From positions 480,001 to 544,000 of the forward strand of contig JBCCHT010000002.1 in the NCBI GenBank assembly GCA_039028615.1: a stretch of DNA of 64,000 nt, written 5' to 3'. The notes below the pieces were generated by a model. That model made no database searches. It saw only the letters and a list, made by a program, of their open reading frames with translations, and was not told where the DNA came from. The position numbers and the translations under genes were made by a program. Source of the DNA: Myxococcota bacterium. Its GTDB lineage: Bacteria > Myxococcota_A > Polyangia > Nannocystales > Nannocystaceae. Positions 3,100-8,180 of the stretch are shown piece after piece; position 1 is the first letter of the stretch, and each line of letters starts with the position of its first letter.

Positions 3100-3176
<77 letters not shown>

Positions 3177-3201
3177 CCGTTTCGACTCGAGCAAGCTTTC
3201 T

Positions 3202-4002
3202 ATGAACCCGCAGATCACTGCGCTCCATCAGCTCCAAAAGCAGGACCGTCAACTCGGCCGGCTCGAGCGAAAACTCGAGCTCATCCCGCGCCGAATCAAG
3301 GAGTTGGACGAGGACCTCGACAAACTCCGCTTCATGCTCGATGCCGAGCTGGAAAAATGTGAGCAGACGCGCAATTTCCAGCGTTCGCAGGAGCAGCAGC
3401 TCAGCGAAGAAGAAGAGCTCATCCGCCAGAGCAAGGCCCGTCTCAACCAGGTCAAGACCGCGCGCGAACTCAGCGCGACCCAGCGCGAGATCGACACGAC
3501 TCGCCGCCTGGCCACCTCCCGCGCGGAGGAGATCGAAAAGCTCAAGGCCGGCGTGGAAGAGGCGGAAAAGCGCGTGTCCGCGATGAGCGACAGCCTCAAC
3601 GCGCTGCAGAGCCAGGCCGACGAGGAAAAGAACCGCCTCGGCGCCACCGAGCGCAAGATCGACACCAAGCTCGCCAAGCTCCGAAGCAAGCGCACCGGGC
3701 TGACCTCGCAGATCGAGGCCGGCACGCTGGCCACCTACGAGCGCATCCGCCGTAAGGGCGGCGGCCTGGCCTTCGTGGCCGTCCGCGAGCGCCGTTGCTC
3801 GGCCTGCAAGATGGTCGTGCCGCACCAGATCTACGTGCACCTGCGCAAGGGCGACGACATCCAGGCCTGCGAGTCCTGTGGTCGCCTGCTCTACTGGGGC
3901 GCCCACTTCCCCGAGGACGAGGAGACCGGCGTCAAAAAGAAGAAGGGCGAGGTCGCCCCCAAGGCCGCCCCGCCGCAGGTCCGCGGCGTGAAGAAGGTCT
4001 AG
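3202..4002 (+). CDS. C4-type zinc ribbon domain protein (DUF164; CT398/HP0958-like coiled coil)
   Basis: Long coiled coil followed by CSAC-x21-CESCGRLLY. Confidence 0.9.
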   Translation: MNPQITALHQLQKQDRQLGRLERKLELIPRRIKELDEDLDKLRFMLDAELEKCEQTRNFQRSQEQQLSEEEELIRQSKARLNQVKTARELSATQREIDTTRRLATSRAEEIEKLKAGVEEAEKRVSAMSDSLNALQSQADEEKNRLGATERKIDTKLAKLRSKRTGLTSQIEAGTLATYERIRRKGGGLAFVAVRERRCSACKMVVPHQIYVHLRKGDDIQACESCGRLLYWGAHFPEDEETGVKKKKGEVAPKAAPPQVRGVKKV

Positions 4003-5399: not shown

Positions 5400-5714
5400 C
5401 TATACGCCCGTGAAGTCGAAGTAGTCACGCAGGTTCTTGAGCGCGGCCGGGTCGTTGGTCTTGACCTTGCCCCGCGCGATGTCGATGGGCCCGGGCAGCT
5501 TGCCCTTGATCACCATCTTCTCGAACAGCGCGGCGGTCGTCTTGAGGACGACGTCGGCGTTGTCGACCTTGCGGTTGGGCTCGACTTTGACTTCTTCGGG
5601 GCTGATCGTGACCGTGTAGCGGAGCTTGTCGATCGAGAAGTAGAAGACGGTCGTCTTGGATGCTTTGCCCTTGATGTAGCGCTTGGGCATTTCCTCGAAG
5701 ATTTGGGCGATCAT
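5400..5714 (-). CDS. SCP2 sterol/lipid-binding domain protein
   Basis: 104 aa with an ADVVLKTT...FEKMVIKG...IARGKVKT.D SCP2-like pattern. Ends 8 nt upstream of argH. Confidence 0.7.
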   Translation of the reverse strand: MIAQIFEEMPKRYIKGKASKTTVFYFSIDKLRYTVTISPEEVKVEPNRKVDNADVVLKTTAALFEKMVIKGKLPGPIDIARGKVKTNDPAALKNLRDYFDFTGV

Positions 5715-5907: not shown

Positions 5908-6747
5908 ATGCGCACGTCTCTCAAGTTCTTGCTCCCCTCCCTCGCCTTCATGGCGCCCCTGGCCTACGCGGGCTCGGCCCAGGCCGATCTCGGTGCCTGC
6001 GGCAACATCCACGTCGAGGCCAGCGCCGAGTGCGAAGTCCTCGTGGGCGCCGAATGCGAGGTCGCCTGTGAGCCGGTCGCATTCGAGGCCCAGTGTGCCG
6101 CCGACCTTTACGTGGGCTGCGAGGGACAGTGCAACGCCGAGATCAACGCGGGCTGCTCCGGCACCTGCGAGGCCGACTGCAACGTCGAGTGCGAGGTCGA
6201 CCCGGGCCGCTTCGACTGCCGCGCCAACTGCTTCGCCGACGGACGGGCGGACTGCCAGGCCCGCTGTGCCGACAGCGAGTGCCACGCGTCGTGCGAGGCC
6301 ACCCTCGAGGCCCAGTGCTCGGCCTCCTGCAACATCGAGCTCCCCGAGGCCGACTGCTCCGGTCGCTGCGAGGCCAGCTGCGAGGGCTACTGCCAGGCCG
6401 AGGCCAACATCGACTGCCAGGTCGAGTGCCAGGCCGGCGGCTACATCGACTGCCAGTCGCGACTGAGCGGCGGGTGCGTGGCCGAGTGTGATGTCGACGG
6501 GGCCCTGTTCTGCGACCAGCAGTACATCGACCACGGCGGCAACCTGCAGGAGTGCATCGACTCCCTGCGAGCGCTGCTCGACATCGAGGTCACCGGTGAG
6601 GCCAGCGGCAGCTGCAGCGGCAACACCTGCGAGGGCTCGGCCAGCGGCTCCATCTCCTGCAACATCGGCGAGGGCTCGACCGTGCCGCTGGGCGGGATGA
6701 TCCTGCTGATGCTCGGCATCGGCGGCGCCATGCGACGCCGCTTCTAG
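5908..6747 (+). CDS. Secreted cysteine-rich protein with MYXO-CTERM-like anchor
   Basis: Signal peptide (AQA-D), 33 Cys, C-terminal SC-linker-hydrophobic helix-RRRF. Confidence 0.85.
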   Translation: MRTSLKFLLPSLAFMAPLAYAGSAQADLGACGNIHVEASAECEVLVGAECEVACEPVAFEAQCAADLYVGCEGQCNAEINAGCSGTCEADCNVECEVDPGRFDCRANCFADGRADCQARCADSECHASCEATLEAQCSASCNIELPEADCSGRCEASCEGYCQAEANIDCQVECQAGGYIDCQSRLSGGCVAECDVDGALFCDQQYIDHGGNLQECIDSLRALLDIEVTGEASGSCSGNTCEGSASGSISCNIGEGSTVPLGGMILLMLGIGGAMRRRF

Positions 6748-6768: not shown

Positions 6769-6810
6769 AAAAAGACGCCACCCGCGATCACTCGGGGTGG
6801 CGTCTTTTTT
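6769..6810. terminator. Bidirectional intrinsic terminator
   Basis: AAAAAGACGCCACCC...GGGTGGCGTCTTTTTT between convergent genes. Confidence 0.9.
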
Positions 6811-6827: not shown

Positions 6828-8180
6828 TTAGTCGAGCGGCTTGGCCATGGTGACGAGTTCTTCGGCCGAGGTGGGGTGGATGCCGACCGTCGCGTCGAAC
6901 TGGGCCTTGGTCGCGCCGCAGCGCAGCGCCACGGCAAAGCCCTGGATGATCTCGCCCGCATCGGGGCCGACCATGTGCACACCGAGCACCTTGTCGGTGT
7001 CGCGATCGACCAGCAGCTTCATCATCGTGCGATCCTGACGACCGGGCAGCACGTTCTTCATCGGTCGGAAGTTCGTGCGGTACACGTCCACGTGCGGGTA
7101 GCGAGTGCGGGCCTCTTTTTCGGTCATGCCCACCGTGCCCACCTGGGGCTGCGAGAACACGGCCGTGGGCACGACCTGGTGGTCGATCTTGGTGGGGTTG
7201 TCGTTGAACAGGGTCTCGGCGAGGGCGCGGCCGTCGGCGATGGCCACGGGCGTCAGGTTGAGCCGGGTCGTGGCATCACCCACCGCGTAGACGCTGGGCA
7301 CGTTGGTCCGCGACCACTCGTCGACCTCGATGGCACCGTGCTCGTCGGTCTTGATGCCCAGGTCCTCGAGGCCCAGGTTGCGGGTGTTGGGCCAGCGCCC
7401 GGTCGCCCACATGAACACGTCCGCCTCGTGCTCGGTGCCTCCGCGACAGACGGCGACGACCTTGTCGCCGCGCTTTTCGAGCCACTCGAGGTCGGTGTGG
7501 GTCTTGATCTCGATCCCCCGACGCTGCAGTTCCTCGGCCAGGGCGTTGTGCACGTCGTCATCGAAGCCCCGCAGCACGCCGTAGCCCCGCACCAGCAAGG
7601 TGACCTTGGACCCCGCCCCCGCGAAGATGCCCGCGAACTCCACCGCGATATAGCCTCCGCCCACGATCACCAGGTGCTCGGGGATGGTGGTCAGATCGAG
7701 CGCCTCGTTGGAGGTGATGCCCAGCTCCGCCCCGGGGATCTTGGGCACGTGCGGCCAGCCCCCAGTGGCGATCAGGATGTTCTCGGCGGTGTAGCGCTTG
7801 CCCTCGACCTCGACGGTGTGCGGGTCGACCAGGGTGCCGCGGCCGTTGATGATCTCGACCCCCGACTGACCCAACATGCGCAAGTAGATGCCGTTGAGTC
7901 GATCGAGCTCGGCGTCCTTGGCCGCGACCAGGCGCGCCCAGTCGAGGGTGCTCTCGCCGATCGACCACCCGTAGCCGCTCGCGTCTTCGAGGTCGTCACG
8001 GAAGTGCGAGGCGTAGACGAGCAACTTCTTGGGCACGCAGCCGCGCAGCACACAGGTGCCGCCGACGCGACTGGACTCGCAAATCGCCACCCTGGCGCCG
8101 TAGCTCCCGGCACGGCGACTGCTCGCCACGCCCCCGGACCCCGCACCGATGGTGAACAAATCGTAGTCGTACTTGGACAT
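6828..8180 (-). CDS. gor: Glutathione-disulfide reductase
   Basis: GAGSGG, GGTCVLRGCVPKK, GGGYIAVEFA and TVGIHPTSAEE motifs. Confidence 0.95.
   Translation of the reverse strand: MSKYDYDLFTIGAGSGGVASSRRAGSYGARVAICESSRVGGTCVLRGCVPKKLLVYASHFRDDLEDASGYGWSIGESTLDWARLVAAKDAELDRLNGIYLRMLGQSGVEIINGRGTLVDPHTVEVEGKRYTAENILIATGGWPHVPKIPGAELGITSNEALDLTTIPEHLVIVGGGYIAVEFAGIFAGAGSKVTLLVRGYGVLRGFDDDVHNALAEELQRRGIEIKTHTDLEWLEKRGDKVVAVCRGGTEHEADVFMWATGRWPNTRNLGLEDLGIKTDEHGAIEVDEWSRTNVPSVYAVGDATTRLNLTPVAIADGRALAETLFNDNPTKIDHQVVPTAVFSQPQVGTVGMTEKEARTRYPHVDVYRTNFRPMKNVLPGRQDRTMMKLLVDRDTDKVLGVHMVGPDAGEIIQGFAVALRCGATKAQFDATVGIHPTSAEELVTMAKPLD

Follow-up and report, generated by a model that had tools for sequence, protein, structure and literature searches.

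The window, a 64 000-nucleotide stretch of myxobacterial DNA, encodes a 279-aa protein with 33 cysteines (P0001; 5908–6747, + strand). With a probability of about 0.6, we read this protein as an exported, lipid-anchored and mostly β-stranded hairpin held by approximately 15 nested disulfides, likely serving as a stiff acidic stalk or part of a coat and several times the length of the small ladder peptides of animals and plants. The architecture is real, conserved and apparently undescribed, and combines known principles, namely a cystine-ladder hairpin and a MYXO-CTERM anchor. P0001 had no match in Pfam or NCBIfam (E≤1), a sequence-profile search of the PDB returned nothing under E 0.018, and no description of the family was found in open-licence literature (PMC, bioRxiv), including the accessible portions of PMC13001179 and PMC11561630, though supplementary tables of MYXO-CTERM proteins may list members. 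This accords with the first-pass annotation of the sequence, which recognised no characterised family of this kind.

Cysteine mirror, sorting signals and gene layout

The gaps between successive cysteines from C2 to C29 are symmetric around C15-x4-C16 (C15 at nt 6265; C16 at nt 6280–6282), with 12 of 13 mirrored gaps matching, whereas the best other centre reaches 6. Shuffling the 27 gaps gave 12 matches in 6 of 200 000 trials, and a Markov null retaining the 3/7 alternation gave at least 12 in 279 of 200 000. The first-pass annotation had reported the 33 cysteines and this palindrome with one 8-versus-7 mismatch, and its gap list and positions were reproduced exactly. Thirty cysteines sit in a single mirror core, in which the gaps at the base, C1–C2 and C29–C30 (10 vs 13), do not mirror each other. 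All features of the protein lie on the + strand. A predicted Sec signal peptide (residues 1–26; 5908–5985) is followed by the N-terminal half of the base, from C1 to C2 (5998–6033), in which C1 is predicted to pair with C30. The N arm of the ladder (C2–C15, residues 42–120; 6031–6267) has odd-spaced kinks at P56 and P99-G100 and modelled strands at 51–64 and 76–88. It is joined by a 4-residue tip loop (6268–6279) to the C arm (C16–C29, residues 125–202; 6280–6513), beyond which lies the C-terminal half of the base (6514–6579), comprising C30 and a helix predicted by the structure models at 213–224. A second, short mirror hairpin (I226–S250; 6583–6657) carries C31-x4-C32 at its turn, shows the same residue alternation as the ladder (period-2 small residues across 121 cores) with modelled strands at 233–237 and 240–244, and leads to the anchor cysteine. 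The protein ends in a MYXO-CTERM-type sorting signal (6658–6744) made up of C33 (C251), a hydrophobic helix (modelled at 262–276) and an Arg-rich end, RRRF.

The export signal was judged on pattern, from a basic start, a hydrophobic core and an A-x-A end; in 117 of 121 proteins an A-x-A occurs no more than 14 aa ahead of C1. The MYXO-CTERM profile TIGR03901 did not match P0001 alone, and matched 58 of the 121 aligned members at E≤0.01, exceeding its cut-off in four of the eight tested. Of 263 proteins, 257 have at least three Arg or Lys residues among their final 14 aa. The genome contains one protein over the cut-off for the myxosortase core (127 vs 100 bits; NF040914, the accession given in the accessible part of bioRxiv 10.1101/2023.06.07.544157), and none of 14 control genomes had one. 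Together with the Arg-rich tails, these matches uphold the assignment of C33 as the MYXO-CTERM cysteine in the first-pass annotation, and sequence signals of this kind make it very probable that P0001 is anchored on the cell surface. The predicted 225-aa ectodomain (residues 27–251) is strongly acidic, with 43 Asp/Glu against 7 Lys/Arg.

P0001 is flanked by a divergent gene (5400–5714, −) and a convergent gene (6828–8180, −), and its layout is therefore monocistronic. The convergent gene encodes a glutathione-reductase-like pyridine nucleotide-disulfide oxidoreductase. A likely bidirectional intrinsic terminator at approximately 6769–6810, common to P0001 and the convergent gene, comprises A5, a stem-loop and T6; the enclosing stretch folds at −40.9 kcal/mol (z −4.1; 0 of 200 shuffles), although a consensus terminator scan found none, this hairpin included. 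Gene directions and folding statistics thus bear out an earlier description of a monocistronic gene with a strong terminator. The divergent gene encodes 104 aa with no Pfam match, which we take to resemble an SCP2 sterol-carrier domain; it is syntenic with P0001 in 19 of 80 loci, and an argininosuccinate lyase gene comes next beyond it. Elsewhere in the window, a tRNA gene with a CAT anticodon (3103–3178, +; called tRNA-Met by ARAGORN) is directly followed by a gene for a CT398-like zinc-ribbon coiled-coil protein (3202–4002). In one clade of orthologues a DsbA-like gene lies downstream on the opposite strand (L005, L006, L007, L009, L013–L016, L018, L081, L116, L121, L123 and L134), and it is absent beside P0001 in this window. 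No conserved partner gene was seen among 80 loci, the recurring neighbours reflecting clade synteny, and no catalytic motif was seen in the family.

Paired change of the two arms in homologues

A word-based search returned 294 homologues at E≤1e-3, orthologues in near kin being 65–76% identical to P0001. The best 120 of the 294 homologues were taken up for comparison, and profile tests used 121 aligned members. Confirmed stretches numbered 244 from genomes and 344 from metagenomes, of which 80 each were kept for study, and the named carriers among them belong to Nannocystaceae, Polyangiaceae, Kofleriaceae, Sandaracinaceae and Labilithrix. Across the phylum, 45 of 301 surveyed genomes matched, and the 18 with full-length matches all belong to the class of the window. 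HMMER searching of 1.84 billion representatives gave 755 matches at E≤1e-3; mirror tests on distant relatives used the full-length proteins among the best 150 of these, fragments being dropped.

Spacing has diversified considerably, with 60 patterns in 263 distinct cores, and it has done so largely in mirrored pairs. The cysteine number is even in 233 of the 263, and the two arms carry equal numbers in 260 of 263 close cores once a single adjacent extra cysteine, present in 29, is dropped. At the tip rungs 112/133, 116/129 and 120/125, both cysteines were present or both absent in all 194 anchored cores, that is, those with a standard stem, the 69 with other spacings being left out. Regular-expression counts of tip-cysteine loss (68 vs 65, 22 vs 21) may contain false pattern matches, and the anchored table is preferred. 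Lost tip rungs gave way to G/L, A/F, A/A and similar pairs, and these three rungs changed 5, 2 and 1 times per side on the tree; an independent-pair sign test on supported branches had too few pairs for significance in this family. Length changes mapped to the tree were likewise mirrored (an extra 3-rung twice, an extra 7-rung once, 7 to 3 on both arms three times, 7 to 9 on both arms once). C31 and C32 were lost jointly in 5 of 263 cores (four changes on the tree), and C1 and C30 were absent together in eight distant relatives (P0294, P0295, P0305, P0311, P0328, P0336, P0347 and P0369). A significant mirror was kept in 109 of 128 distant representatives (84 of 132 before extra cysteines were collapsed), and many of the 19 failures arose through one-sided cysteine loss. 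One-sided changes also occur closer to P0001: three of the 263 close cores have lost a cysteine on one side, 13 cores have a gap lengthened from 3 to 5 in the N arm alone, 28 have one lengthened from 3 to 4, and bulges of one or two residues are often confined to one arm. An additional cysteine without a partner appears repeatedly, in 27 cases at position 157 and in two within the tip, with 11 changes on the tree; it hints at contact between chains.

The arms are not equally constrained. In the stem, mean entropy is 1.47 bits for the C arm vs 2.01 for the N arm, and the C arm contains the near-invariant G160, Q171 and Q175 as well as N167 at 88%. The central loop is of even length in 250 of 260 cores (4, 6, 8, 10, 12 or 16 residues). 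Its length varies and its sequence is of low complexity, features that speak against a conserved binding tip. The ladder-plus-base module appears mobile: P0242 carries two ladders in tandem, and the module follows a ZU5-like domain (E 1.2e-5, below cut-off) in P0306 and an unknown domain in P0361, both of these being lipoprotein-like proteins lacking the sorting tail. A word search for longer fused forms found none among 2750 candidates, which is weak evidence; the tandem and the two fused forms came from HMMER.

Covariation between non-cysteine residues was scored over 381 antiparallel and parallel registers using the 194 cores (Neff 138), relatedness being handled by 80% weighting and APC only. 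The best registers were sums 245, 243, 244 and 246, scoring 9.8, 9.0, 6.1 and 5.0; the next scored 3.0 (sd 1.43), and 245 is the exact cysteine mirror. Top couplings at the mirror were 59–186, 52–192, 106–139, 114–131, 61–184 and 69–176, with 77–166 and 60–183 two residues inside it, and the middle positions of CxxxC covary across the arms in the tip (106–139, 110–135 and 114–131). Right-handed twisted hairpins make a diagonal contact at positions 2 and 9 according to the accessible text of PMC9268152, from which we infer a lateral-pair sum of 13, and the −2 register (sum 243) fits this diagonal contact. Among the 381, no register of the kind expected if the ribbon doubled back at its kinks scored above 3.0, and side-chain volumes were not anticorrelated overall across the mirror (mean r 0.008, 18 pairs). 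Since homologues keep the mirror as spacing changes and non-cysteine covariation peaks at it, nested pairing is well supported, and nested antiparallel disulfides between the two arms are very likely on this comparative evidence. The connectivity first proposed from the spacing of a single protein (C15–C16, C14–C17 and so on to C2–C29, with C1–C30 at the base and a small C31–C32 loop) therefore gains support at each level, from paired changes and covariation, from joint absence of C1 and C30, and from joint loss of C31 and C32. The test then suggested, that indels in one arm should be matched in the other, came out in its favour, rungs being lost, gained and shifted in pairs, with the one-sided exceptions given above.

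Strands, helices and alternative readings

The stem is likely β-stranded, judging by residue patterning and structure models. The middle residue of CxxxC is Gly or Ala in 85% of cases and its neighbours are polar, and even positions of Cx7C are small or hydrophobic, a period-2 alternation. The hydrophobic moment peaks at 180° in all four segments of stem and tip, with or without cysteines (2.0–2.3 at 180° vs 0.1–0.4 at 100° with them; 1.4–2.1 vs 0.3–0.85 without). An AlphaFold model of P0001 (121 sequences; mean pLDDT 58.5, pTM 0.29) has a β stem in mirror register (pLDDT 35–65) and a helical tip (104–119 and 123–141; pLDDT about 90). A model of a Nannocystis member (135 sequences; mean pLDDT 45.7, pTM 0.25) has three strand pairs at the mirror sum, shorter tip helices (pLDDT about 50–64) and a strand that runs into the proximal tip. 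The first-pass annotation had fitted the 3/7 spacing to one helix face along the whole rod, a proposal that the period-2 residues, the 180° moment and the β stems of both models do not support. In the structure prediction it recommended, strands pair at the mirror sum in both low-confidence models, and within the ladder helix was placed at the tip. Foldseek gave no match to the P0001 model at E≤1e-3, and VIA gave a best Z of 2.7 for the Nannocystis model; both are low-confidence models, so fold novelty is not implied. The top Foldseek rows were long β-hairpin pore stems (lysenin, E 0.32, TM 0.11), which were not taken as homology.

At the tip the case for strands is evenly balanced, and only the distal part may be helical, as modelled. 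An unlikely alternative is a nested ladder whose β-ribbon stem carries an α-hairpinin-like helical tip (C12–C19) as an exposed binding end. The confident tip helices of the P0001 model, its Ala-rich tip with a single Gly, the fit of the α-hairpinin motif CX3C-X4–20-CX3C (as given in the accessible text of PMC11591084) and VIA matches of the modelled tip to luffin P1 (2l37; Z 5.4, rmsd 2.3, 43 aligned), VBP-8 (6o3q; Z 5.2, rmsd 2.8, 47 aligned) and nigellin (2nb2; Z 5.0, rmsd 1.4, 38 aligned) all favour it. However, Z scores of 5–5.4 fall in the range of common helical pairs, the tip CxxxC middle positions, which would face outward on a helix, are Gly or Ala in >90% and covary across the arms, loop lengths are almost always even, and a strand enters the proximal tip in the second model. 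Two long antiparallel helices stapled along their full length, the fold originally envisaged, would place cysteines at i, i+4 and i+8 through gaps of 3 and 7 and would suit the modelled tip, but runs of up to six cysteines at period 4 would drift round a helix. The 180° moment also far exceeds that at 100°, changes of +2 residues (3 to 5, 7 to 9) are tolerated, Gly occupies the middle of CxxxC in 91% of cases in a related lipoprotein family and both modelled stems are β, leaving this fold very improbable.

Metal binding or local sequential disulfides, as in metallothioneins, or a radical-SAM-modified CxxxC peptide precursor, can hardly be credited either. The protein is acidic and Cys-rich, and PF27846 (tSAM_targ_Cxxx_rpt) is precomputed on many homologues, yet local bonds or clusters would predict neither paired loss of residues distant in sequence nor covariation at the mirror register. 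TIGR04114 matched 1 of 121 members at E≤0.01 (19.6 bits vs a cut-off of 20) and not P0001, the genome (96.7% complete) has no TIGR04115 maturase over cut-off (best 81 vs 350 bits), no radical SAM protein occurred among the recurring neighbour clusters scanned, and export and sorting signals are present; the precursor reading was accordingly rejected, and the PF27846/TIGR04114 label on homologues seems to reflect composition. A recognition or adhesion receptor, in TraA-like kin or substrate recognition, with the conserved C-arm surface and base binding a partner, is improbable. Most MYXO-CTERM proteins, a group that includes TraA, are predicted to be adhesins or hydrolases (accessible part of PMC11980579, from which the MYXO-CTERM definition is taken), the C arm is the more conserved, and the module also occurs in tandem and behind other domains. 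Set against this are the lack of a conserved partner gene among 80 loci, the variable, low-complexity tip and the 65–76% identity of near-kin orthologues. We favour a structural role, as stalk or coat, over that of a receptor because the family showed neither a catalytic motif nor a conserved partner gene or tip, and we put a structural stalk, rather than a receptor or enzyme, at even odds.

For the preferred β-stranded ladder, P0001 would be exported via Sec and folded oxidatively, its bonds presumably formed by Dsb/VKOR-type enzymes. By analogy to TraA, C251 would be lipidated, the tail cleaved by myxosortase and the protein displayed on the surface. Cys, Ala, Gly, Val and Ile would line one face of the ribbon and acidic or polar residues the other, and the small-residue face could be buried by coiling or by packing two or three copies into a narrow barrel; the stalk probably self-associates. 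Fully extended, the arms would span approximately 26 nm (78 residues × 3.3 Å), or less if kinked at conserved Pro/Gly hinges.

Other ladders in the genome and comparison with known systems

The source genome (G000) encodes a paralogue (contig C13:38224–39168, +; L195:4225–5166) with a 15-rung core, an extra cysteine at the 157-equivalent position, no C31–C32 hairpin, an acidic linker and a MYXO-CTERM-like tail. It also encodes four lipoprotein-like proteins of 440–470 aa (L191–L194; contigs C9:97904–99325, −; C65:34451–35779, −; C19:199231–200634, +; C45:64660–65988, −), each with a different cysteine mirror series inserted between Cys-poor flanks. In three of them every gap is mirrored (15, 12 and 11 gaps), and the fourth contains one mismatch. 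The tail of the C65 type is long, alternates small residues with Val and resembles a β strand. For one lipoprotein ladder 1305 homologues were scored, and of the best 120, 87 are exact mirrors and 113 have at most one mismatch; the 91% Gly noted above belongs to this family. Its best non-cysteine register lies four off the cysteine mirror (84 of 120 sequences, Neff about 45), with a complementary Ala/Gly pair (AG 39, GA 32, GG 13, AA 0; median p 0.03), and may represent an inter-chain contact or shifted pairing. Directly downstream of ladder lipoprotein genes, including the gene whose homologues were scored, we identified a VKOR-thioredoxin/DsbA fusion with a CxxC motif (L191:2816–3901, −; L110:2259–3197, +; L103:2848–3399, +), at 3 of 16 loci with a ladder lipoprotein, most of which have only 1.5 kb of flank; this fusion is a candidate dedicated oxidase for these proteins. 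The genome additionally has DsbA-like matches on more than 10 contigs, five of them in tandem at contig C31:103009–106700, and two other very Cys-rich, secreted-looking proteins (contigs C45:43431–43994, +, and C2:144944–145717, +) with tandem, unmirrored repeats (30 Cys in 187 aa and 40 in 257 aa).

More tentatively, and with the balance somewhat against it, myxobacteria of the class of the window may carry an undescribed envelope superfamily of giant disulfide-zipped β-ribbons, in MYXO-CTERM and lipoprotein forms with six in this genome. Through the Cys/Ala/Gly face such ribbons would assemble with one another into needles or fibres, narrow β-barrels of several chains reaching tens of nm in length. 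They would lengthen in evolution by gaining a rung on each arm simultaneously, and some loci would provide a VKOR-DsbA oxidase dedicated to them. A ladder of 13–17 rungs whose connectivity is readable from sequence and which evolves by paired arm changes would be a new bacterial surface-protein architecture and a demanding substrate for oxidative folding in the periplasm. It would also suggest that 'radical-SAM target' and 'keratin-associated' labels on ladder proteins are wrong, and offers a possible length-tunable rigid scaffold. The ladder reading is directly testable because cultured strains (Nannocystis, Paraliomyxa, Polyangium) carry the family.

Among known systems, P0001 resembles MYXO-CTERM proteins (TIGR03901; TraA, processed by myxosortase MrtX/MrtC) in its signal peptide, invariant cysteine, hydrophobic helix, Arg-rich end and genomic myxosortase, and differs from the others in an ectodomain that is predicted to be a single nested mirror ladder and matches no Pfam or NCBIfam family. 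With β-hairpin disulfide-ladder peptides, among which tachyplesin and arenicin-3 are counted, it would share nested cross-strand disulfides in an antiparallel hairpin. In the accessible part of that literature, hepcidin has four nested bonds and θ-defensin a cystine ladder, while the available text of PMC7761999 gives capitellacin an NMR β-hairpin with laddered C5–C18 and C9–C14 disulfides, whose 3,4,3 cysteine spacing equals that of the P0001 tip. Such peptides, as characterised in the portion of PMC4410394 at hand, are cationic, animal in origin and up to about 25 aa, with one to four bonds. The P0001 type, with no sequence homology to them shown, is approximately 160 aa with 13–17 rungs, strongly acidic, bacterial and predicted to be membrane-anchored; the length and charge of its ectodomain do not fit a short cationic antimicrobial peptide. 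Targets of TIGR04114/PF27846 resemble it in that short CxxxCxxxC runs score weakly; unlike them, P0001 has no maturase over cut-off in its genome, bears export and sorting signals, and shows a mirror instead of a plain repeat. Plant α-hairpinins (luffin P1, vicilin-buried peptides, nigellin-1.1), short peptides with 4–6 Cys and a CX3C...CX3C motif in the accessible text of PMC11591084, share that motif and a weak structural match to the modelled tip, whereas in P0001 the motif lies within a 30-Cys ladder with period-2 patterning.
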